From the NCBI GenBank assembly GCA_963575745.1, contig CAUYUJ010000103.1, positions 186,001 through 250,000 on the forward strand: 64,000 nt of DNA, written 5' to 3'. The notes beneath the pieces were generated by a model, which did no database searches, had not been told where the DNA came from, and was given only the letters and a program-made list of their open reading frames with translations. This document shows, one piece after another, positions 49 to 64,000 of the stretch. This stretch comes from Prorocentrum cordatum. Taxonomy: Eukaryota. Each line of letters starts with the position of its first letter. Within the stretch, counting starts at the first letter, position 1. Position numbers and translations under genes: made by a program.

Positions 49-23047
<22,999 letters not shown>

Positions 23048-41760: not shown

Positions 41761-42984
41761 AACCAATGCAACGGCAGAGGACGACCTGCACTGTTGAGCA
41801 ACTTCCTTGAAGCGCTGAGGGCTGGGGGGGAAGGGTGAGGAAGGGCAGGGGGGGGGGGGGGGATGGAGGAGGACGAGGGGGGGTGGAGGAGAAGGAGGAC
41901 CCTTGCGAGCCCAGGAGTGATCAACAACATTGGTATACGCCCTCCCTCCAAGCTCCTTCATAGGCCCCTTGCAGCATTCATTTCTACCGGTGGAAGTGCC
42001 CCGTTGGGGGGCGGCCGCGAGAAAATCCTGAAGTGTGGCCAAGCACCGTTCTCAGGACTTCAACGTCGCGAGTCAACCTAACCGTTGCATTGTGACGACC
42101 TACGGCGACCCCGCGTCGTGCCAGGTCACCGTTCGCGGAATTTCAAGTTCGCGAATCATGGTCGTTGACATTACTAACGCCCCCCGTCGCCTTTTTTCAG
42201 CTGCCCTCCATTCTTGTCCTCTGCAGAGCGCCGGTTGGGCTTGGATCTGACGGAGAGAGACCCTCTCCGCAGTTGTTTAGTTACTCAGAGCTAAACGCGC
42301 GCGCGGCCCGCCTGCCCGGCCGGCCGGCGCTCGCGCTGCGCGCGGACACGCGCGTCGCCGCGCTGTTTTGAGCGACTCCGCTCAACGGGCTTATCTAGCC
42401 ATGTGTGCAAAGATTCGTCGTGGAAGGTTAGCCTCTCGTGAGCTACAGCAAGCATGAACACTTACTGGCGTCAATATTCATCTGCCTAGCATGACGCTAG
42501 ATATGAAACGTGCCGGTTATTTACAGACAACTTTTCCGCGAGGCCAGGGGGTGCTCCTTCCAGAAAATGATGGTGCATTTGGTATTCCAGAACGCCCACG
42601 CGGCTTTAAAGAAGCCGCATAAGTCGTCTTCCGAGACCCTGGCGACGTCAGGGGTCCGAAACTGCGCTCCTCTCAGAATGCGAGCATTAGCGATCCCATG
42701 TCCTGTGCCCAGTGGCGAAAGCTCGCTGGCACGACCGGGCGCGCCAAGACCGGGAGGTGACCATAGTGGAGGAAGCGCGCCAGCGGATGGCCCTGAATGC
42801 GCAAGGGGGGGGGGGGGGCTCGCCGAACCCCGCCCCCCCCCCCCCCACCCCCCCTTCAGGAGGGGGGGGGGGGGGGGGGGGGCAAAACTTGCGCTCCCTT
42901 GGCGCTGGAAGGGGGGGGGGAGGTCCGACCCCCCCCCTTCCCCATTTTGCGCCGAACAGGGGGCCGGGGAGGGGGCCGCTCGGG

Positions 42985-44450
42985 TAGTGGGTAGAGAGTG
43001 GAATTTTTCGAGTAGCGATTGGTACGTGGTGGGTATGTGATAGTGAGTATTGCGCAGTGAGTAGTGTGTAGTGAGTAGTGGGTAGTGGGTAATAGATAGT
43101 GGTAGTAGTGAGTACTGCGAAGTGATTAGTGAGTAGTGAGTAGAGTGAGTATAGTGAGTAGTGGGTAGTGAACAGTGGGAAGGAAGTAGAGAGTAAGGAA
43201 TTGTGAGTAGTGGGTAGTGATGAGTGGGTAGTGTGTAGTGAGTAGTGCATGGTAAGTAGTGAGGAGGGAGTAGGGGTGCGGGAGTAGACAGTAGCGAATA
43301 GCGAGGAGTGAGTAGTGCGCAGTGAGTAGAGAGTAGTAGCAGTGAGTGGTGAGTAGCGAGTAGCGAGTAGGGAGTAGCGAGTACGGAGTAGCGAGTAGCG
43401 AGTGGTGAGTAGCGTGTAGGACGTTGTGTGTACTGAGTAGTGAGGAGGGAGTAGTCAGGAGTCAGTAGTAGTAGTGCGTAGGGAGTAGTGTGTAGCGAGT
43501 AGCGAGTAGGGAGTTGCGAGTAGTGAGTAGGGAGTAGGGAGTAGGGAGTAGTGAGTAGTGAGTAGAGGCGTGAAGTGGGTATTTGAGTAGCGGGTAGTGA
43601 GTATAGGGTGGTGAGTAGTGAGTATTGAATAGTGGGTAGTGAGTCGGGATTAGCGAGTAGAAGTCAGTGAGTAGAGAGTCGTGAGTAGTGAGTAGCGGCT
43701 TGCGACTAGTGACTAGTGAGTAGGGACGGGAGTAGTGAGTAATGAGTAGCGAGTAGTGCGTAGTCGGTAGTGAATATTTCGTATCTGGTAGCGAGTAGCA
43801 GATAGTGAGTAGTTAGTTGTGGACAGTGCGTAGTGAGTAGTGAGTTGTGAGTACTCAGTAGTAAGTAGTGGATAGTGGTTAGTGGGTAGTGAGTAGTGCT
43901 TAGTGAGTAGTGAGTAGTGGGCAGTGAGCAGTGTTTAGTGAGAAGTGAGTATTGGGTACTGGGTGGTGAGTGGTGAGTAGTGGGTTGGGAGTAGTGAGTA
44001 GGGCGTAGTCAGTAGTGAGTAGTGAGTTGTGGGAGCGTAGTGAGTAGCCAGGTTTGGGTAGTGAATAGTGCGTTTGGGGTAGCGATTAGGGCGTAAGAAG
44101 TGGCGAGTAGTGAGTGGCGAGTAGTGAGTGCTGTGTATGGAGCACGGGGTAGCGAGTAGCGAATCGTGGATCGTGGGTATTGACTTGTGGGCAGTAAGCA
44201 GTGAGTGGTGAGTAGTGAGTAGTGGGTAGTATTGAGTGGGTAGTGAGTTTTGATTCGTGATTAGTGAGTAGTGGGTAGTGAGCTGTGCTGAGTGAGTAGT
44301 GAGTATTGAGTAGTGGAGACTGAGTAGTTTGTTGTGAGTTAGTGAGTAGGGACTAGGGAGTAGGTAGTGGGTAGTGAATCGTGAGTAGAAGTGGGTGGTG
44401 AGTAGCGAGTAGTGCATAGTGGGTCGTGGGTAGTGCGCAATGAGTAGTGG
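42985..44450. repeat. Degenerate 7-bp (GAGTAGT)n satellite
   Basis: ~1.46 kb, strongly G/A/T-skewed. Confidence 0.92.
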
Positions 44451-45281: not shown

Positions 45282-47413
45282 AACAAGGGTTAGTGTTCGG
45301 GGTGGTAGGGGTCGGGTTTGGAGACCGGGGGCGCGGCGAAAGGGGGGGGGGGTTCGGGGGGGCCGGGGGCGCGGCGAAAGGGGGTTCGGCGGCCAAGTGG
45401 GGAGTCGGGGGGTCGGACCCCCTCCTCCTGTTGAAAGTGGGGCGCCGTCCCCGACGACGGACCGGGAGAGGGGGCGGGGCCCCCGGCGGCGGATCGGGAA
45501 AGGGGGGCAGGGGGGGGGCCGACGACGGATCGGGGAAGGGGGGGGGGGCTTCGGGGCCACGCAGCGGCGCGCCCTCCATGATGGAGGCAATGACATTCGG
45601 CATGTCGACATTGCTAAGGCCTTGCGACCGGCGCCGCCGACCCCGCAGACGACGGCGACGAATGCGAAGAGGGGGAGGGGGGGGGAGGAGGGGGATGAAG
45701 GTGGATGGGGGGCAGGAAAAGGCGAAGGAAACGTCCCTTTTGGGGGCCGTGGGGGTCGTGGCAGAGACGGGCGGGAGGCCTTGTGGCCAGCGGCCCTTCC
45801 CGCCGCCGCGCTGGGGTTGTGGTTGGAAGGCCTCTTGGATGTTTCGGGTTTCTTGGGGCCTCTGTTGGGCCTCTTGGGGGTCTCTTGGGGGCCTCTTCGG
45901 GCCCCTTGAGGGGCTCTCGGGGCCTTCCCGGGGCTTCTTGGGGCGGGGGGCTTGAAATGTCGGTTCGCGGTCCTCTTCTCGGGCCTGCTCGGTGCCCTCT
46001 CGGCGCGCCTCGGCGTTTCTTTGGGGCTTTGGGGCGCCCGGGGGCGGATGCGCATCTGCCCCCCCCCCTCCCCCCCGCCCGGCCCGCCCCTTCGCTGGCG
46101 GGCTTGAGGCGGGGGGCGCAGGGAAAGGGCGCGACGGGGGCGCGTGGGGGGGGGGGCAGCGGGCGCGTCGACTGAGCGCGCGCCGACAGGGAGTCCGCGC
46201 GCCGACGGAGCCGGCGGATTTCATCGGAGGCCGACGCATCTAATTCTTCCGCGTTGACGCCGATTGCTAATCGCAAAAAGCTCGTCGAGGCAAGTGGTCG
46301 TCGAACCTGTTGTTTCGATGGGTCTTCTCGTCAGGAACGCGAAACTCCGTTTAGTTTAGAACGCGAGTCAATGGAATTTCTTTGCGATGTAACCGTCTTC
46401 GAAAACGCCCGGAAACGCCGACGGCGAAGCGGCCCTGAGACGCCGCGACTCTGTCATGGCCCCCCCTCTGCTCAAGCGATCGAAGACAGCGAGCCCGCCA
46501 GAAGAGCCCCTCGGTTTGGAATCCACTGCCCCTCTGTTATGAGGCCGTTGTATAGGAGAGGGAACAGAGGACAGAGTGTTTACACAGTTTTGAGGAATTA
46601 GTGAATTCAGCATGGGTCTGGCTTGAAGTGCCTCGAAGAAAGCGCGCGCACCCGAATCGCAGACATATGGCTATATGCGGACCCAGGACACTTTGCTTCC
46701 CGTCGTCGTCCTCGTCCTTGCTCCGTTCCCCTTCCTTTCCTCCCTCCCCTGGATGGCGTCGAAAGCGTCCGCGGCTCGGGCGGGGGAGAGCCCCTTCCCA
46801 CCTCCCTCATTATTCCTGGTTCCTCTTTGCCTCCCTGCTCCACCATCCGTCGTCCTACCTCGCCCATCCTCCTTGTTCGGAAAGTGAAGTCCCTGGCGCC
46901 GCGCGCCCGCGTCAGCGGTAAATGCTTTTTCGATATCCGAGCACAGCGGCGCAACCAAACAGAGGGGATTGCCAATGCGAGAGTTCGGGGCGCACCCAAA
47001 ATGCGGGCGGCACGGCCGCCGAGCGCAGTCGCATCGCTAACATGTAAATTGCAGGTGCCTGCGGCAAGGTCCGCCCCCCTTGCCAGAGCAGTGATCTATA
47101 TGGCGACGCGTGGAGCTTTGACTGTTAAGAGGTCCTTGACATGTGACATCTCTCGTGTTTTCGGACTGCTGCGCGGCATTCTTTGGGGTCCTTCGAGGCC
47201 TTTTTGGGACGTCTTCGGGCCGTTGGGAGCCGCTTTGGCGCCGCGTTGCACCGCGGCCGCCCTGGGCCAGGGAAGCGTGCATTTGCGGCTCTCTCTGGGG
47301 CGCCCTGGGCCGGGGAAGTGTGTATTCGCATTCCCCCCAGCTGGGCATGTCGACCTCGGTTCTGGGTTGGCAAAGTCGGGGCGCCCTCGAGGTGGCGAGC
47401 GTTCACCATTTCG

Positions 47414-55636: not shown

Positions 55637-56452
55637 CGCTGGGAGTAGCCTGGCGGAAGCAAGCGTTCGCAGGACAAAACAAGGACTGGATATGAGAGAG
55701 AATGTGGGCGACGATGGCAGGGGAGGAGAGGGGGAGAAAGAAAGGGGCAGAGGACTTGGCAAGGGCAGGGGAATGGAGGGGGGAGGGTGGGAGGATAGGA
55801 TAAGCGGACAAGAAACGGCTGACAGGGAACGTCATGGGAAGGCCACCACAGGCCACTCATCTCAGGGGTTCCAGGGCCAGCGCTCGGAGGACGAGGGCCA
55901 AGGTCGAGCAGGGCCGCGAAACTGCCTCCAAGGGTCTCGCCACAAGGGGGGGGGGTGAAAAAATAATGGCGCGGGGAGACGGGCAAACATTTGCACTGAG
56001 AGCTCACCCCCTGCCGCGAACCACCGGCCGTTGGCTGCCGGCGCCCTGGCCCCTGCGGCCTCGGCGCCGCGGAGGCCCCGAGAGGCGGGGCGGACGAGGG
56101 GAACGGGGCGGGGTGGGAGAGGCGGGGGGGGGGGCGGGGGGAATTTTTCGGAGCGCCTTCCCCCACTCCTCCTCCTCCCCCCCCCCCTCCCCCCCCTCCC
56201 ACCCCCCGCCCCTTCCCCGCCCCCCCCGCCCCTCGCCCCCCGCCCCCCCCCCCCCCTCCCCTTCCCGCTTCCCGCGCACCCCGCCCACCCCCCCTGGCGC
56301 TTCGAATTTTGTGCCCGCCCCCCCCCGCCCCCCCCTGGCGCTTCGAATTTTTCTGCGCGCCCCCCCCCCCTTTTTGGGCCCCTCTCTCCCCCCCCCCCCT
56401 TCTGGGCACCCCTCCTTCCCCCGCCCGTCCCCCGTTGTTTCTGGCGCTCCGA

Positions 56453-56493
<41 letters not shown>

Positions 56494-56683
56494 AGGACCC
56501 CCATCCCCCCGGGGTCGCGAGGTCGTCGAACCCCTCCGAACGGCCGCCCCGCAGCTCTCAGGGAGGGGTCGGCAGCGCTGCGCGGCGCCGCAGGGGGTCC
56601 GTCTAGAGCGGACCCAAGACTCACGATACCTTAAAGCATCAAAGGTAGACATCATAATAATCCAACGCGAATCGAAGCGGATA

Positions 56684-56853: not shown

Positions 56854-57294
56854 TATCCTCCTCTGTGAGCTTGCTATTTTCAAGGGTCAGACTGCCGTTG
56901 CCTTTCTGATCTCGCAGCGTTTGGGGTAGGCCCACGGCGGCAAGTCCGCTCGCAGACGCGGACGTTCACCGTTGTGGGCGGGCACGAATCGGCCACGGTT
57001 GCGCGTAGGTCGCGCGCGCGGCAGTGCGACGCGACCGCGGCCTCGCTGCGCAGGCGCGGGCCATCGCGCCGTCGCGCGCCAGGGTTGCGCGTCGCGGGGG
57101 GGGGGTCGCTGCCCCGCGGCGCGTGCGCTTCGCAGGTGATTTGCTAGCGCCGGGGTTGCGTCGCCGCGGGGGGGGGTCGCTGCCCCCGCGGCGCGTGCGC
57201 TTCGCAGGCGATTTGCATTTGGAGGAGGCGCCGCGCGCGCGCCCCGCGCGCGCGCGCGGCGGGTGCCTCCCTGGCGCGCTATCTTTCTCTTCTT

Positions 57295-57665
<371 letters not shown>

Positions 57666-58439: not shown

Positions 58440-59210
58440 CCTGGTCTCGGGCAAGGCGCAGGCCCCAGGGCAAAGTTCGCGCGGGGGAGGGCGCAGGCCT
58501 TAGGATCCCTGCGTTTTGGGTCGGGCGCTGGCCCCAGGACCCGATCGTGCGTAAGGGGGAGGGCGCATCCCGTTGATCCCTGTCTTGGGTAGGGCGCAGG
58601 CCCCATGGCCCGATGGTGCGAAGGGGGGAGGGCGCATCCCGTAGATCCCTGTCTTGGGTAGGGCGCAGGCCCCAGGGCCCAGTGGTGCGAAAGGGGGAGG
58701 GCGCATCCCGTTGATCCCTGTGTGTCGGGTAGGGCGCAGGCCCCAGGACCCAACTGTGCGAAGGGGGGAGGGCGCATCCCGTTGATCCCTGTGTGTCGGG
58801 TAGGGCGCAGGCCCCAGGACCCCGTCTTGCTGGGCACCGCTCTCCTCGTGGGTCGGCCCGCGGGCCTTGTCTCAGGCAGGGCGCTGGCTTCTGGCTCCTC
58901 GTCTTGTGTGGGGGAGGGCGCTGGCCCCTGGTACCGTGTCTTGGGTGGGGCGCAGGCACCGGGGCCCAATCGTGCGAAAGGGGGAGGGCGCATCCCGTTG
59001 ATCCCTGTCTTGGGTGGGGCGCAGGCCCCAGGACCCATTTGTGCAAAGGGGGAGGGCGCATCCCGTTGATCCCTGTGTCGGGTAGGGCGCAGGCCCCAAG
59101 ACCCCGCCTGGCTGGGCTCTGGCTTCTTCTTGGGAGAGCTCCCGGGCCTTCTCTTGGGTTGGGCGCAGGCCCCTGGTCTTCCCCCTCTCGTGAGGGGCGC
59201 AGGCCTGGTC
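58440..59210. repeat. ~60-70 bp minisatellite (GGGCGCAGGCCCC..GGGGAGGGCGCATCCCGTTGATCCCTG)
   Basis: Repeated units immediately upstream of the gag-like gene. Confidence 0.88.
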
Positions 59211-59319
59211 GCCACCTCTTGGGGCCCCGCGCAGTCTCCGTCCTGCGCGCGCTCGCACCGGCAGCTCGCCGAGTTCGGGCGCCCAAGCTGTCTCGCGCCG
59301 CGCGGCACCGCTCTTCGCG

Positions 59320-60906
59320 ACGGGCGACCTCGGCAGTTTTCTTGGCGCCTTGGACGGCGCGTCGGCGCGCGAGGCCGGTTGGCTCGAAGCCACGGCGACC
59401 GCGCTCAAGGGCCAAGGTGTGGTGACGATCGCCGATTTAGAGGGCGCGGCATTCGAGGATTTCTCTTTTGCCGACAAGGAGCTCGACGCCGCGCAGAAGC
59501 GCCTCGTGCGCGCGGGGATCGCCGCGGCGAGCGCGCCGGCGCCGGTGGCTGGGGGCTCGGCGGCGGCCGCCCCTCCAGCGCCCTCGGCGGCGGAGAACGC
59601 GGCCGCCCTCTTGGCCGCGCTCAAGACGGGCACCAGCGAGGCGCAAGCGATCTCGACGCGATCTCGGGCTCGCGTGGCCCCGCGCGGCGCGTTCGCAGGA
59701 AAAGCCGGCCCGCGTACTCTTGGGCCCTCTCCTCGGCAAGGCGTCGCTGGCCAACCTCCCGCAAGAGTTCTGGCCCAGGCGCGCTCGCGCGCGCGCTGGT
59801 TCTCGCATCTGGTCCCGTGCGCCGGTAGCTCCGACATGCTTGACGCGTTGAACGCGGAAGTCTTGAAGCGGCAGAAGAAGGAATCCAGCGAGGAAGCGCG
59901 CGTCTTCCTGTACTCGGACATCCGCAAGTGGGTGCCCGAGTGGGCCCGCTCGGGCCCTCGCGATTTCGAAGAGGAGGCTGACGGATCGTCCGGCGCCAGC
60001 AAGGACATTCGTGACCTCGCCAAGGCTCGCGCCGCGCGCGCGTTGCCTGGCCCGCGCGCGGGCGCTCGCCCCGCAGGAAGTGGCGGCGGTGAAGAAAGGG
60101 CCCGAGAAGAAGGCCTACTTAACCCTCTGCCAGTGGCAACTGGCTTGGAACCGGCGCCACCTGCCCGTCGCGCGCCCCCCCCGCGCGCCTGCCTGTTATC
60201 GCGCCGCGCGCGGCAGGTACATGGTCGCGCTGGTCGCCACGGGCCAGCTCACGTGGGCTGAGGTGCAGGCGCATCGCGACAACTGCTTGAAGGTGGCGGT
60301 TCAGGCTGCACGCGCGCGATTTCTCGTCGCTCTCTGTTCGCCGCGCGTTGCCGCGCAGGCGGCGGCCTCGAAGCGCCGCGTGCACCTCGGTATCGTGTGC
60401 GACGAGGAGGCGCGGAAGGCGCGCCCCTGCGTTCGTGCTTGCGCGGCGCCCTGCGTCTGTGCCGGCGCGTGGCAGCTATGGGCCGAGCAGCTACGCTCGG
60501 GGGACCCAGATTTCAAGCTGGGGAAGACGATCCTGCGGGTCGACCCGCGCGCCCTACAGCTGGCGCGGGATGCTTGCGACAAAGAAGACGGCGCCACCCA
60601 CGCGACGGCGAGCGTCGCGCCGCGCGGATTCGCTTCTGCCACCTTTCTCCGCCGTTTCCGCGCGCGCAGGCACCGGCGGCCCGCGCTCCCGAGAAGGCGC
60701 GCGGGGCGGGCGGCGCCAGCCAGCCGTGGCGCGCCGCGCAGAGCTGGAGCAGCGGCTCCTGGGGCAGCGATTGGCCGAAGGGCCAGAAGCGCGAGCGCTC
60801 GTGGGGCAGCGATTGGAAGAAAAAGGACACGAGGCAGGTACGGACGCCGCCGCGCCCGGCGCAGCGCTGAGCGCCGCCCTGGCAGGGCGCGCGCGAGCCC
60901 CCGTAG
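59320..60906 (+). pseudogene. Intron-containing gag-like gene of a DIRS-type element
   Basis: Start reads ACG. GC-AG introns at 59641-59698, 59779-59828, ~60025-60076, 60154-60216, 60305-60358, 60419-60475 and 60608-60669. The spliced product has W.LAW.RY..A....Q......H and DE..R..W helical motifs typical of DIRS ORF1. Confidence 0.65.
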
Positions 60907-61400
60907 GGGTGGGGCCCCTTCAGCCGTCAGAACGGCTCGCGCGCAAAAGCCTGCCTCCGCCCGCGCCGGGTCGGGGCCGTGACCCGGGCGCGCCCGATAG
61001 TTCTACGCTTTGTCGCTAAAAATGGCCCCGTGCGCCGTGCGCAGGACCCCCGCTCGCGTGCTGGGACATGCCGCGTGCGCTGTTGCCGCGGAGGCCGCTT
61101 CGCTTTCCGCGCCGCGCTGCGAGTGCCCGGCTTGGCCGCGGCCAGCCTGGGCGGGGCGCGCGGGGGAGTTCCGCGGGGCAGCGTGCGTTCCGAGGGCGCT
61201 TTTCGGTGCGCTTTGGCGCCTTGTCCACGTCCGCGGTTTGCAATCTTGCGCAGTGCCTGCCGTGCCGGTGCCGCCCCCGCCGCCCGCATCTGGCGCGCGA
61301 AAGCGGGCGGCGCCTGGGGCTGCATGCGTCGTCGCCAAATCTCGCAAGGCGCGCTTTCCCGGCTCTCGGTCGCGCGCGAGCCAGCGGCGCGCGTCAGGTG

Positions 61401-63760
61401 ATGCCGGCGCCGCCAGCGCCACCAGGGCCGCAATTCAGGAGCGATTGGTCTCGGCGTTGCAGCGACAGCGCGTGGCGCGACATCTGCGTCGCGGCCGGCG
61501 GCTGTAGCGGCGGCGACGCGGAGAAACTTACCTTTCTGGCAAGGGCGCTGGACGGCGACCCCGCGCTCTGGGGCAAGTGGCGGCCCGCCGCGGCCTCGGC
61601 TTTGCCGCCCACGGCCGCTGAGGCAGTGCGGTGGGCCGCGCAGACCGCCCCCGCCGACGTGGTGGCTTTCCGCGAGGGCGAACTCGCGGCGCTTCGCGAA
61701 AGGGATCGGGCTCTCCGGGCCAGCGGCGCCGTGGAAGAATGGTTCCGGGGGGTGGGCCCCGCCATGCGGCGCGTCGCACAGCACGTGAACGGGTCTCTCT
61801 GCGCAGAGATCGCGGAGCGCATTGCCTTCTGCGACCCAGGCTGCGTGGCATTCTTCACGACGGGGGCGCCCCTCGTCGGCGAGCTCCCGCGGTCGGGCCA
61901 CGGCAGCCCAGAGGTGTTCCCTCCCCGTCTGGGCATCGCGGAGCTGCTCGGCAACGCCGAGTCGACAAATCGCGACATTTCCTTTGGCCTCCGCGACGGC
62001 GCGCACGGCGACGCCATCCTCCGCAAGACACGGGACGAGGCCGAGCTGGGGCGCATCAGTTGCCCGGTGCCGCTCCGCGACGTGTGCCTGGACGGGGCCG
62101 TCATCGCTCCGAGGTTTGTGGTTGAGCAGCTCCGTGAAGACGGGCCCTCGAAACTCCGGTTGGTCGACGACGTGACCAAGGCTAGGATTAACGAGGCGAC
62201 GCGGCCTCAGGAGCGGCTCCACCACGATGCCGTGGACGCGCTTTTCGAAGCAGCTCGCATCTTCCAGGAAGTTGCGGGGCGGGCACCCGCCCTCTGGAAG
62301 GCAGACATCGACGCTGCCCATTCGCGCTGAGCACCGCCGGTTCGCTTGGATCGTGTTCAGCGCCGCCGGGCAGGTCTGGGCGGCGCAGCACGCGGCAGCG
62401 CCCTTCGGGGCCACGTCGTCGGTGCACAGCTGGGCGCGAGTGGGTGCCTTCATCGCGGAGGCGGCGCGCGTGCTCTTGCGGATCGCCGCGCTGCGATACC
62501 TGGATGATTATTTTGGGCCGGATCACCCCGAAGTGGTGGAGCACGCAGCAGCGCAGCTGGCGGAGCTGATTCAGCTGATGCTCGGCCCAGGCGCGGTGGC
62601 GCCGGACAAGATCGCCTGGGGGCCCCCGCTGGTCATCCTCGGCCTCGAAATCAAGGCGGGGCGGCCTTGGCGCGACGCGCCGGCCGGCCGGCTGTGCGCA
62701 TCGCCAGGTGCTGCCACGCGCGTTCTGCGCGCGTCCCGCACCCGCGAAGACCGCCAAGTGGCAGCGTGTCATCGGCGAGGCGCTCGCGACGCGCGCCCTC
62801 GCGCCAGGCGGCTCGCGCGCCCCCCCTAATGTGTCGGGACCTTGCGTTCGCTGTGCAGGCGCATCGTCCAAGCTGGCCGGGGGCTTGGCCTGGGCAGCGT
62901 CGCATCTCTTCCGCCGCCTGGGGCGCGCCCTCCTCAGGCGCGGCGCTGCCCCCGCGCGCCCGGGGGGGCGGGGCGCTGCGCTTCGTGCTCGCAGGCCGTT
63001 GCACGCGCAATCGCATCGCGGGGAATCGAAGGCCCATGGGCCGTTGATGCTTGCCCTGCAGTGGTGGCGCGAGGTCTTGGCCATGGACTTGTGCCAAGCG
63101 CGGCCGTGGGCCGACAAGGCGCGGCCTCGCGCAACTCTCTTCGCGGACGCGTCGGGCCAACCACCGCGCGTGGCCGCGGTGCTCGTCACCGCCACGGGCG
63201 TCCGTTTCAATTCCATGGTCGTCCCGGATTCCTTGATGGCGTCGTCCCAGCGTCGCCGGGACAACCAGATTCAGGGGCTGGAGCTCCTGTCTATCGCGCT
63301 GGGCATGTGCACCTTTGCAGGCATTGCTTTCGCGTGCGACTGCCCGCGCCGGCGGGCAGGTCCGGCCCCTCGTCTTCGCTGCGCTCAGGGGAAGTGCAAG
63401 GTTGCGACTTGCATATTTACAGCGACAATACCGGCGCGGAGTCTTGCCTGCGGAAGGGCGCCGCGAAATCCTTCGACCACTCGTGCATCGTCCACTCCAT
63501 GTGGAGGCGCGCGGTGGAGCTCGACGTTGACCTCGCGGTTTTCCGCGTGCCCACGGCTGAGAATCTGGCCGATTTGCCTTCTCGGCGCGCCCGTGCGCGC
63601 CGCGCGGTGCTGCGGGCTGGCCGCGGGCGCAGCGTGTCGCAGGGGGGGCGACGAACTCCTGCTACGCATCGGCGCGGTGCGCACGCGCCCGTGGCTCGAC
63701 GAAGAATTCTGGCACGTGGGTGCCTGGGGCGCTCTCTCTGCGGCCCGCCTCTTCGGCTAA
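61401..63760 (+). mobile_element. Intron-containing DIRS-type reverse transcriptase / RNase H gene
   Basis: RFVVEQ..KLRLVDD, WKADIDAA, PFGATSSV, YLDD, ILG. RNase H: ADAS, NQIQGLELL, SDN, NLADLPSR. Five GC-AG introns (62656-62707, 62808-62858, 62938-62994, 63321-63388, 63585-63642) and one frameshifting deletion at ~62318. Confidence 0.88.
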
Positions 63761-64000
63761 ACCGCGCGCCATGTCGCGCCCGGGCGCCATCTTGTGCGTC
63801 GGGGCGTCGCGATGCTTAAGTTTGGGCGCGGCAAAGCGTTCGGCGCGCCGCCGCGCTTGTCATCCTAGGGTCCCGCGTTTTGTCGCAAGCGGAGTGCACG
63901 CGGCCAGTGCCTCGGGCGCGTCGCTCGCATTGTCAGGCGCGCCGCGCGGCATCATGTCGTTATTCCTTGAATTGTGTTCCTTGCGCCCGACAGCGCCCAG

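Follow-up and report, generated by a model that had tools for sequence, protein, structure and literature searches.

A mini-intron-bearing gene upstream of a reverse transcriptase gene in a putative DIRS-like retroelement of Prorocentrum cordatum

Segment 59320–60870 of the forward (+) strand of a 64,000-nt window from the dinoflagellate Prorocentrum cordatum (GCA_963575745.1, contig CAUYUJ010000103.1, positions 186,001–250,000) is probably, at roughly 70%, the first gene of a multi-copy DIRS-like retroelement. In this element, the gene (ORF1) is followed by a reverse transcriptase/RNase H (RT/RH) gene and, in other copies, by a recombinase-like gene, and host-type mini-introns lie within the coding sequence and are inherited by the copies. 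A preliminary description of the window had proposed a separate, intron-interrupted gene directly upstream of the RT gene, and this proposal is borne out. Three things underlie the "DIRS" label: an RT match below threshold, motifs, and a recombinase lead from a language model for a segment outside the window. Retrotransposition of the family, as opposed to DNA-level duplication, is putative, both ends of the element lying outside the window.

The window copy itself is dead. Its start position (59320–59322) reads ACG instead of ATG, the position being occupied by M in all seven related ORFs and gene models, and a 14-nt deletion after 62314 causes a frameshift in RT; the 14-nt insert is present in three of four runs.

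Exon–intron structure of ORF1

ORF1 is composed of eight exons and ends with a TGA at 60868–60870. The seven GC–AG gaps of 50–63 nt reported in the preliminary description are all found where it had placed them, and taking them out as introns yields a single frame of 384 codons. Comparison between diverged copies establishes the predicted exon–intron structure and its conservation. For this comparison we used L001, a related metagenome contig carrying a 76%-identical copy, which is the only locus retained among 565 pattern matches in a metagenome scan. The exon differences between the window and L001 are distributed over the three codon positions as 50/42/97 (chi-square p 8e-7), whereas the gap differences, counted in a mock phase, are distributed as 23/27/32 (p 0.48). 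Indels relative to L001 are −1, −9 and +3 in the exons and −2, +8, +1, −4, −1 and +12 in the gaps, and five of the six gap indels are not multiples of three. In addition, the exons contain 17.3% A and the gaps 5.1% (Fisher p 7e-11), and the codon-position GC of the window exons is 0.69/0.55/0.86. The donors and acceptors are conserved in L001 or have GC swapped to GT. Two points count against this reading: identity to L001 is about alike in introns (245/327, 74.9%) and exons (623/812, 76.7%), and L001 is itself damaged, in that exon 1 lacks 1 nt, exon 4 is interrupted by an in-frame stop, and the start position reads ATC.

Exon 1 (59320–59640, 107 codons) contains the start position, a putative SAM/HhH-like N-terminal domain and an Ala/Pro linker, and is matched by the distant homologs P0033–35, P0039–41 and P0044–46. 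The frame-shifting intron 1 (59641–59698; 58 nt, gag/GCGCAA...CGCAG/g, phase 0) has its donor and acceptor conserved in L001, and insertions of 11 and 19 residues are located at or beside the junction in P0035 and P0040, respectively. Exon 2 (59699–59778, 80 nt), which bears the conserved motif GPLL..A.L..LPQE(F/Y)WP, is identical to L001 at 77 of 80 nt, compared with 546 of 732 nt in the other exons (p 2e-7). No RNA structure beyond background was detected around this hyper-conserved exon (z 0.06), and its reading frame is backed by the distant homologs P0040 and P0035. Intron 2 (59779–59828; 50 nt, cag/GCGCGC...GGTAG/c, phase 2), likewise frame-shifting, is the least conserved gap (58%) and has a 2-nt deletion in L001. 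Exon 3 (59829–60024, 196 nt), to which P0037, P0050 and P0057 align, shows a third-position pattern of differences from L001 and a +3 indel. Intron 3 (60025–60076; 52 nt, aag/GCTCGC...CGCAG/g, phase 0) is longer by 8 nt in L001 and has a GT donor there, and the gap is also absent from P0057; a border at 60029 was dropped after comparison with L001, P0036 and P0017. Exon 4 (60077–60153, 77 nt) carries the motif L.L.QW..AW.R, kept in approximately 12 homologs.

Introns 4 (60154–60216; 63 nt, ccg/GCGCCA...GGCAG/g, phase 2), 5 (60305–60358; 54 nt, cag/GCTGCA...CGCAG/g, phase 0) and 6 (60419–60475; 57 nt, aag/GCGCGC...GGCAG/c, phase 0) have lengths divisible by three and are open in frame in the window copy, so that the window alone is insufficient to define them and homologs decide. 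In L001, intron 4 has indels of +1 and −4 nt and a GT donor, intron 5 is shorter by 1 nt, and intron 6 is longer by 12 nt. The distant homolog P0036, the source of which could be DNA or RNA, aligns in one ungapped 118-residue block over junctions 4–7 and in a preceding block over junction 3, introns 3, 4, 5 and 6 being absent from it; intron 6 is also absent from P0037 and P0053. In P0035, P0040, P0037, P0043 and P0053, insertions of 11–26 residues lie no more than 4 residues from junctions 1, 4, 5, 6 and 7. Specifically, P0037 has a 17-residue insertion at junction 4; P0037, P0043 and P0053 have insertions at junction 5 that differ in sequence; and near junction 7 there are 26 inserted residues in P0043 but only 2 in P0037. 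Furthermore, in P0026, a diverged read-through ORF, the frame shifts within introns 5 and 6, yet exons 5 and 7 are both read in frame. The donor of intron 5 (60305) was placed by comparison with P0036 and P0017, and a GT donor at 60293 was dropped after comparison with these two and L001.

The exons in this part of the gene are marked by conserved residues. Exon 5 (60217–60304, 88 nt) is kept in most homologs of alignment A4 and contains the sole nearly invariant column of that alignment, a His; exon 6 (60359–60418, 60 nt) has the motif KRR..LG..YD...RK and 87% identity to L001; and exon 7 (60476–60607, 132 nt) has the conserved motif WAE..R...P.F......D...L..A...YD. It is followed by the frame-shifting intron 7 (60608–60669; 62 nt, acg/GCGAGC...CGCAG/g, phase 0), for which an alternative GT donor at 60614 would give 56 nt. 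Exon 8 (60670–60870) encodes a basic, Trp/Ser/Gly-rich tail of 66 aa (pI 11.7, six Trp) that ends with RTPPRP and the TGA. A possible eighth intron at 60838–60885 had been suggested as well; this suggestion is refuted, as the intron would delete the C-terminal RTPPRP, which is kept in all five homologs extending as far as the C-terminus (P0012, P0021, P0024, P0027 and P0043), and the stretch is coding. One low-depth contig of run X1 skips 60815–60885, which we read as a deletion variant rather than splicing.

Public annotation treats these introns unevenly. Junctions 3 and 7 are used in all three public P. cordatum gene models and junctions 4 and 5 in one of three, P0017 being a public model that splices intron 4, with exact borders, and intron 5. 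The three models disagree on introns 1, 2, 4, 5 and 6; intron 6 is spliced in none of them, and exon 2 is whole in none. All ENA ORFs of the family run through the introns unspliced. None of the 24 runs listed for 59200–63800 is recorded as containing RNA, and the contigs of four runs, all DNA-type, show no joint across any of the seven introns.

The donor is GC in all 12 gaps (seven in ORF1 and five in RT/RH), and the acceptor is AG/G in 10 of 12. GC is the commonest donor type of P. cordatum introns (51.4%), with AGG acceptors at 79.7%, according to Table 2 of PMC10666404, so the GC–AG borders of these introns are not special. By donor, acceptor and restored frame, the gaps of both genes appear to be spliceosomal introns like those of P. 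cordatum. The preliminary description had set the uniform intron size against introns of 0.26–13 kb in a host gene of the window; a contrast is likewise seen with the host at large, at 50–63 nt here against a mean P. cordatum intron length of 4,709 nt in the available part of the same paper. In an introner hairpin check, the folding energies of the 12 gaps were not below those of shuffles (z −1.11 to +1.34).

RT/RNase H gene, recombinase-like segment and related copies

ORF1 is separated from the RT/RH gene (61401–63760, +; homologs P0001–P0008) by a spacer of 530 nt (60871–61400, +). A spacer of about 500 nt with a tcag acceptor before the RT ATG had been predicted; the tcag is indeed present at 61394–61397, 3 nt before the ATG (61401). 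The spacer is bridged by one run X1 contig (60865–61599), and the diverged read-through ORFs P0019 and P0026 extend from exon 4 into a similar spacer. The RT/RH exons are located at 61401–62655, 62708–62807, 62859–62937, 62995–63320, 63389–63584 and 63643–63760, with apparently five GC..AG introns of 52, 51, 57, 68 and 58 nt between them. The RT motif Y(L/V)DD with flanking motifs and the RNase H motifs DAS, SDN and ADLPSR were read by eye. Pfam RVT_1 matched P0003 and P0008 with E-values of 0.032 and 0.043, respectively, and approximately 14 bits, below the cut-off of 29.6. Seven window ORF pieces together with P0017, P0007 and P0012 gave nothing at the curated Pfam cut-offs, the rows returned being at chance level (E 0.03–0.21), and Pfam searches with 62579–63760 and 62830–63819, covering the RNase H part, gave no match. 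An RT profile matched none of the sequences of solved structures in the PDB, and P0007 gave only chance matches there.

The last part of the window (63761–64000, +) is the start of a stretch that leads, in other copies, to a tyrosine-recombinase-like gene. P0007 and P0017 run on into a segment that is absent from the window by tblastn, the recombinase-like gene lying beyond the window end. In the ESM Atlas, residues 817–1140 of P0017 fall with the clusters Phage_integrase, Phage_int_SAM, DUF3504, NDC10_II and DUF3435 at 0.89–0.92, and eight of the ten best matches share a family or clan. This language-model lead suggests that the segment may resemble a tyrosine recombinase. Pfam searches with P0017 and P0007 returned no recombinase match. 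GIY-YIG was not matched in the Pfam scans of ORFs and models, and no DNMT domain was seen in the element.

Linkage of the two genes in other copies, which the preliminary description had set as a check, is supported by several sequences. P0017, located on another contig, is a single model that unites ORF1, RT/RH and the recombinase-like part; a run X2 contig (record 10; 2,728 nt) spans 59940–62653, from ORF1 into RT; and P0019 and P0026 join ORF1 to the spacer as described above. The succession of ORF1, RT/RH and recombinase-like segment in public models makes the layout DIRS-like. The family is multi-copy: a representative search gave 37 matches at E<=0.001, and 108 contig pieces of run X1 are spread over identity classes of 26/30/25/27. 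The named best matches in three match lists (1 of 8, 2 of 7 and 3 of 7) are all from P. cordatum, and the P. cordatum gene models of the family lie on four different contigs. Within the window, tblastn with the family proteins found no second copy or fragment, and Rfam gave 0 matches over the whole window. Scans of genome contigs and viral contigs with the RT and ORF1 alignments found no further DNA copies.

Upstream of ORF1, a 5′ leader (59135–59319, +) is homologous between copies: the alignment with L001 begins at 59135, the first base of L001, and shows 71% identity over 184 nt. The AG at 59286–59287 in this leader is a candidate trans-splice acceptor. A tandem array of 8.8 units of 69 nt was detected by TRF at 58483–59104. 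In runs X1 and X5, the word depth of the 59000–59166 bin exceeds that of the element body by a factor of approximately 9–11. The array is possibly the 5′ repeat region of the element, and the depth would fit about 10 units per element.

The ORF1 product

The spliced protein has both features ascribed to it earlier, a helical N-terminal domain and a tail rich in W, S and K. The accompanying term "gag-like" stands for the position upstream of RT: the searches turned up neither a capsid fold nor a zinc knuckle or family match, and "gag" is a positional label only. The AF2 model of the exon 1 domain (pLDDT 65) gave no Foldseek match at E<=0.001, and its matches to SAM/HhH folds, which it may weakly resemble, reach at most Z 6.1. 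The central helical domain was modelled by AF2 with a pLDDT of 73.7. The preliminary description had named structure prediction against capsid folds as a check; for the central domain, Foldseek gave no match at E<=0.001 in the PDB and BFVD. In the VIA wide search, the best matches of this domain are sigma-factor domains (Z 5.9), and generic helical matches outrank RSV CA, which is at rank 24 (Z 4.6, 72 aligned, rmsd 4.1). A regular-expression scan of the spliced product and of the three forward frames of 59200–61400 found no CCHC zinc knuckle, Pfam gave no family match for ORF1, and the ORF1 part of P0017 fell only into unnamed clusters of the ESM Atlas. The ORF1 product thus has no demonstrable kinship to capsid proteins. 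Judged from the models and the composition of the tail, it would most likely be a self-associating, nucleic-acid-binding structural or chaperone protein that does the job of Gag.

Explanations of the retained introns and comparison with known elements

Retroelements copy themselves via RNA, and introns in the sense strand are therefore expected to be lost. In our preferred reading, a DIRS-like retroelement with inherited introns, the ORF1 protein would be made only from spliced mRNA; as the copies inherit the introns, the template that is copied would be unspliced RNA, or else DNA. Unspliced template and spliced messenger would then stand to each other as retroviral genomic RNA does to env mRNA. 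Relatives without one intron or a neighbouring block of introns (introns 3–6 in P0036, intron 6 in P0037 and P0053) may stem from partly spliced templates. A bolder form of this reading, which we advance tentatively and consider less likely to be right than wrong, is an autonomous lineage of tyrosine-recombinase retroelements in which obligate mini-introns interrupt every gene, each element containing about twelve or more of them. Such a lineage would replicate from fully unspliced RNA and would make its proteins from monocistronic mRNAs that have undergone several splicing events and perhaps SL trans-splicing; the patchy absence of introns from sister lineages would be a fossil of partly spliced templates.

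The two genes could instead belong to a host or domesticated multigene cluster of tandem or segmental duplicates, in which an intron-bearing gene lies by chance beside an RT-like gene and the introns need no special explanation. Host-type introns in both genes are consistent with such a cluster, as are the failure of either gene to reach the Pfam threshold and the fact that termini, target-site duplications and recombinase are not seen in the window; prevalent paralogs and large reverse-transcriptase families in dinoflagellates are also noted in the accessible text of a review (PMC11453091). We nevertheless regard a host cluster as unlikely. Models from other contigs repeat the order of ORF1, RT/RH and recombinase-like part; many copies are diverged and broken (the window, L001 and the X1 identity classes), and purifying selection is still visible in diverged copies; the RT/RH motifs agree with a DIRS-like element, as does the recombinase lead; and host introns, at the average given in the available part of PMC10666404, are far from the ~55 nt found here.

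Somewhat less probable still is movement or multiplication at the DNA level, by Crypton-like excision and integration through a tyrosine recombinase or as a viral genome, pararetrovirus-like or other, that has integrated. Inheritance of the introns would then be trivial, and the RT would have its role in some other step. The persistence of the introns in all close copies agrees with this explanation, and the sole integration function hinted at is the tyrosine-recombinase-like gene. Moreover, DIRS-1 loses a sense intron on retrotransposition (PMC7192593, in the portion available), so twelve retained introns sit badly with a standard DIRS cycle. However, selection maintains RT and RNase H along with the other genes, the exact loss of single or adjacent introns in relatives is the expected trace of copying spliced RNA, and the viral contig scans gave nothing related. 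That the gaps are never removed, and that a decayed single-exon ORF1 with frameshifts and in-frame filler imitates introns in DNA of 70–78% G+C, is very improbable: ORFs of 100–850 codons are open in all six frames of the region, gaps 4–6 are open in frame and the decay of the window copy is demonstrable, but the gaps are poor in A, their differences are without the codon periodicity of those in the exons, two independent diverged copies (L001 and P0026) have non-triplet gap indels with flanking exon frames kept, and gaps are missing exactly at the predicted junctions in P0036, P0037 and P0053.

Taking the DIRS-like retroelement as the preferred reading, we compared it with known systems. Like the Gag of retroviruses and LTR elements, the ORF1 product is encoded by the first gene upstream of pol, is predicted to be helical and ends in a strongly basic tail (pI 11.7) with the potential to bind nucleic acid; unlike Gag, it has no CCHC knuckle, no capsid-fold match above background and no Pfam match. 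Retroviruses and the Ogre-type LTR elements of plants keep unspliced and spliced RNA pools, with gag-pol expressed from the unspliced RNA and one regulatory intron. The element proposed here would, by analogy, also have two RNA pools, an unspliced template and a spliced messenger, whereas every one of its proteins would need multiple splicing events.

The apparent gene set and order, with a gag-position ORF, then a putative RT and RNase H, then a recombinase-like gene, would be those of the DIRS order, and ORF1 is found in the gag position beside pol, 530 nt upstream of the RT ATG. In the available sections of de Mendoza et al. 2018 (PMC5890265), the reverse transcriptases of Symbiodinium DIRS elements do not fit Pfam, and the elements are annotated as intronless, the authors having used intronless gene models. 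The present family shares with them a dinoflagellate host, an RT too divergent for Pfam RVT_1 and a multi-copy family that includes decayed members; it differs, as far as that text goes, in having seven mini-introns in ORF1 and apparently five in RT/RH, and in having genes that are set apart by the spacer rather than overlapping. The parts list of putative GAG, RT, RH and YR would also be shared with DIRS-1 of Dictyostelium, for which the available text of Malicki et al. 2020 (PMC7192593) describes a sense marker intron that is spliced out in new copies, the basis of the marker-intron assay, in contrast to the introns inherited by copies here. Our literature search found no published description of intron-rich DIRS-like elements, although one may still exist. 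Intronless or prokaryote-style ORF calling misses or garbles such elements, as do screens based on Pfam, and the public models of the family conflict with each other.

About a dozen coding introns kept through diversification imply either a controlled split between template and messenger or a non-canonical spread at the DNA level. If the bolder reading above is true, the family would be a natural system for how a dinoflagellate cell sorts unspliced from spliced copies of one transcript. Penelope-like elements, which have a telomerase-like RT, a GIY-YIG endonuclease and usually one intron, often in the 5′ UTR, keep introns after retrotransposition, a property called "highly unusual among retroelements" (Arkhipova et al. 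2003, as cited in the consulted part of PMC8557442). The element described here differs from them in its putatively LTR/DIRS-style RT/RH, its recombinase lead and its approximately twelve introns within the coding sequence, and would, if the bolder reading is true, be an intron-retaining retroelement outside the Penelope group.

Seven short introns in ORF1

The G+C content of the final 5 kb of the window is 70–73%, and long ORFs are open there in all six frames; an open frame alone therefore carries little weight. Excision of seven GC...AG gaps leaves ORF1 as a single 384-codon frame on the forward strand (59320–60870, TGA at 60868–60870). The gaps lie on the same strand at 59641–59698 (58 nt), 59779–59828 (50 nt), 60025–60076 (52 nt), 60154–60216 (63 nt), 60305–60358 (54 nt), 60419–60475 (57 nt) and 60608–60669 (62 nt), two borders being set from comparison with homologs, and their sizes agree with the 50–63 nt of the preliminary description. 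Codon-position GC of the spliced frame is 0.69/0.55/0.86, and A makes up 5.1% of the gaps versus 17.3% of the exons (Fisher p = 7e-11). Gaps 4, 5 and 6 have lengths divisible by three and are open in frame in this copy, and therefore cannot be proved from the window sequence by itself.

L001, the sole metagenome contig returned from 565 pattern matches (1,366 nt, ~76% identical to the window), differs from the exons at codon positions 1/2/3 by 50/42/97 (p = 8e-7), versus 23/27/32 for a mock codon phase in the gaps (p = 0.48). Indels are −1, −9 and +3 in exons and −2, +8, +1, −4, −1 and +12 in gaps. L001 splice sites are retained or changed from GC to GT (introns 3 and 4), and the intron 5 donor is changed. 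Identity is nearly equal in gaps (74.9%) and exons (76.7%), and the signal of the predicted introns is in how differences are distributed, not how many there are. DNA of exon 2 (59699–59778) is unusually conserved, with 3 of 80 nt differing versus 186 of 732 in the other exons (p = 2e-7), and RNA structure in this region is not above that of shuffled sequences (z 0.06); the conservation could reflect a signal acting in cis, a patch of gene conversion or strong constraint on the encoded peptide. Intron 1 is likewise conserved in its 3′ half.

A search of the public P. cordatum model P0012 against 1.84 billion representatives gave 37 matches at E ≤ 0.001. The 165-aa ENA homolog P0036 (42% identical) aligns to the spliced product in an ungapped 118-residue block that spans junctions 4–7, and the block ahead of it spans junction 3. 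P0035, P0040, P0037, P0043 and P0053 carry unrelated insertions of 11–26 residues at, or at most 4 residues from, junctions 1, 4, 5, 6 and 7; gap 6 is absent from P0037 and P0053, and P0040 and P0035 confirm the reading frame of exon 2. In the diverged read-through ORF P0026, the frame is shifted in exon 6, with exons 5 and 7 in frame. At the level of sequence comparison, the homologs settle the in-frame gaps 4–6 as predicted introns. The public P. cordatum models use junctions 3 and 7 in three of three cases, junctions 4 and 5 in one (P0017) and splice gap 6 in none, while introns 1 and 2 are handled in three different ways. The P0036 ORF starts within exon 3 and ends shortly after junction 7, limits which suggest that it may derive from genomic DNA without introns 3–6 yet with other introns. 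P0037 and P0053 have a further insertion within the equivalent of exon 7, which may be an extra intron position absent from the window's lineage.

The possible eighth intron (60838–60885) was rejected, as it contains RTPPRP, a C-terminal motif that, with a few basic residues, ends all five homologs reaching the C-terminus (P0012, P0021, P0024, P0027 and the 38% identical P0043). The preliminary observation is confirmed, the eighth intron excepted. Run X1 includes a low-depth contig in which 60814 is joined to 60886, the intervening letters of 60815–60885 being unknown; it is read as a copy variant without the last 18 codons and stop of ORF1.

The linked RT gene, flanking repeats and decay

A 530-nt spacer separates ORF1 from the RT gene, with tcag at 61394–61397 before the ATG at 61401, matching the ~500-nt spacer described earlier. 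The start Met is common to relatives P0001–P0008, and the stop codon is at 63758–63760. Past the motif LGLEIK, five more GC...AG gaps (52, 51, 57, 68 and 58 nt) are needed if the motifs of the RT thumb and those resembling RNase H are to stay in frame; P0003 and P0004 (each ~91% identical) differ in frame within these gaps. Pfam RVT_1 reaches only E 0.03–0.04, on two diverged RT members, and gives nothing on the window's own ORF pieces; the weak scores agree with PMC5890265, in which Pfam is reported not to fit the RTs of Symbiodinium DIRS elements. The public models P0007 and P0017 extend past the RT gene into a segment absent from the window, whose Atlas neighbours are tyrosine-recombinase families at 0.89–0.92, a lead to its identity.

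ORF1 and the RT gene are also linked in P0017 and in one 2,728-nt contig of run X2, so the proposed linkage holds in other copies. Gene models of the family are found on four distinct P. cordatum contigs, and X1 holds 108 contig pieces distributed across every identity class. At 59320–59322 the start ATG present in seven of seven relatives is replaced by ACG, and every ORF-called relative has Met there; in both DNA copies the start ATG is gone by one change (ATC near position 205 of L001, in which 1 nt of exon 1 is also deleted and exon 4 contains a stop). The RT gene lacks 14 nt after 62314 that are present in three of four runs, which shifts its frame. The family is repeated, and the window copy is dead. 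Against other copies, C>T and G>A predominate over 59000–64000 (19 + 16 of 69 in X1; 16 + 14 of 50 in run X5), an excess that methylated CpG decay in repeats would produce.

A 69-nt tandem array (58483–59104, 8.8 units) lies directly upstream of the element. In X1 and X5 its word depth is ~9–11-fold higher than over the element body, and the array may belong to the element as a repeat region or be a separate satellite. Just upstream of the array, a (TG)n microsatellite of ~190 units and long C-rich/poly-C tracts (up to 40 consecutive C) occupy 57294–57663 and 56160–56510. Short-period arrays are dense in the remaining window (10–11-nt CCTCTTGGGG-like, 42-nt and 7/14-nt GAGTAGT-like units), with tandem-array/skew stretches at 1973–2266, 11679–11996, 45848–45953, 12562–19221 and 42952–44400 and strong GC skew over several kb at 42–46 kb.

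The ORF1 protein

The N-terminal 70 residues are predicted to form a small helical domain (pLDDT ~75 locally, 65 overall), whose structural neighbours, all weak (Z ≤ 6.1), are chiefly SAM and helix-hairpin-helix domains. The central domain, modelled on P0036, is a five-helix bundle (pLDDT 73.7, pTM 0.60) with no clear structural neighbour: Foldseek against PDB and BFVD returned nothing at E ≤ 0.001, and RSV capsid, the retroviral Gag comparison, ranks 24th at Z 4.6, below sigma-factor region 2 at the top (Z 5.9). The 66-residue tail has a pI of 11.7 and six Trp; a CCHC motif was not found in it, and Pfam gave no match for the protein. 'Gag' therefore denotes position and a plausible job, not kinship.

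Inherited introns and mode of spread

According to figures in PMC10666404, P. cordatum introns average 4,709 nt, with GC donors at 51.4% and AGG acceptors at 79.7%; by these figures the type of the ORF1 gaps is unremarkable, whereas their size is exceptional. Four of the seven introns shift the frame, so the protein requires spliced mRNA, yet introns are inherited in close and distant copies. The simplest reading is that the RNA has two fates, in which unspliced RNA would serve as template and spliced RNA as messenger; partly spliced RNA, copied now and then, would yield relatives without single introns or intron runs. Spread of the element at the DNA level is a live rival to this two-fate model. 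Trans-splicing at the candidate AG sites near 59287 and before 61401 is plausible, given the dinoflagellate host.

Overall, the preliminary interpretation is partly supported, and we rate the element among the DIRS-like retroelements of dinoflagellates. Intron retention is termed highly unusual and attributed to Penelope-like elements in a passage of PMC8557442. As described in PMC7192593, a sense intron placed in DIRS-1 is lost upon retrotransposition, whereas copies of the ORF1 element inherit their introns.
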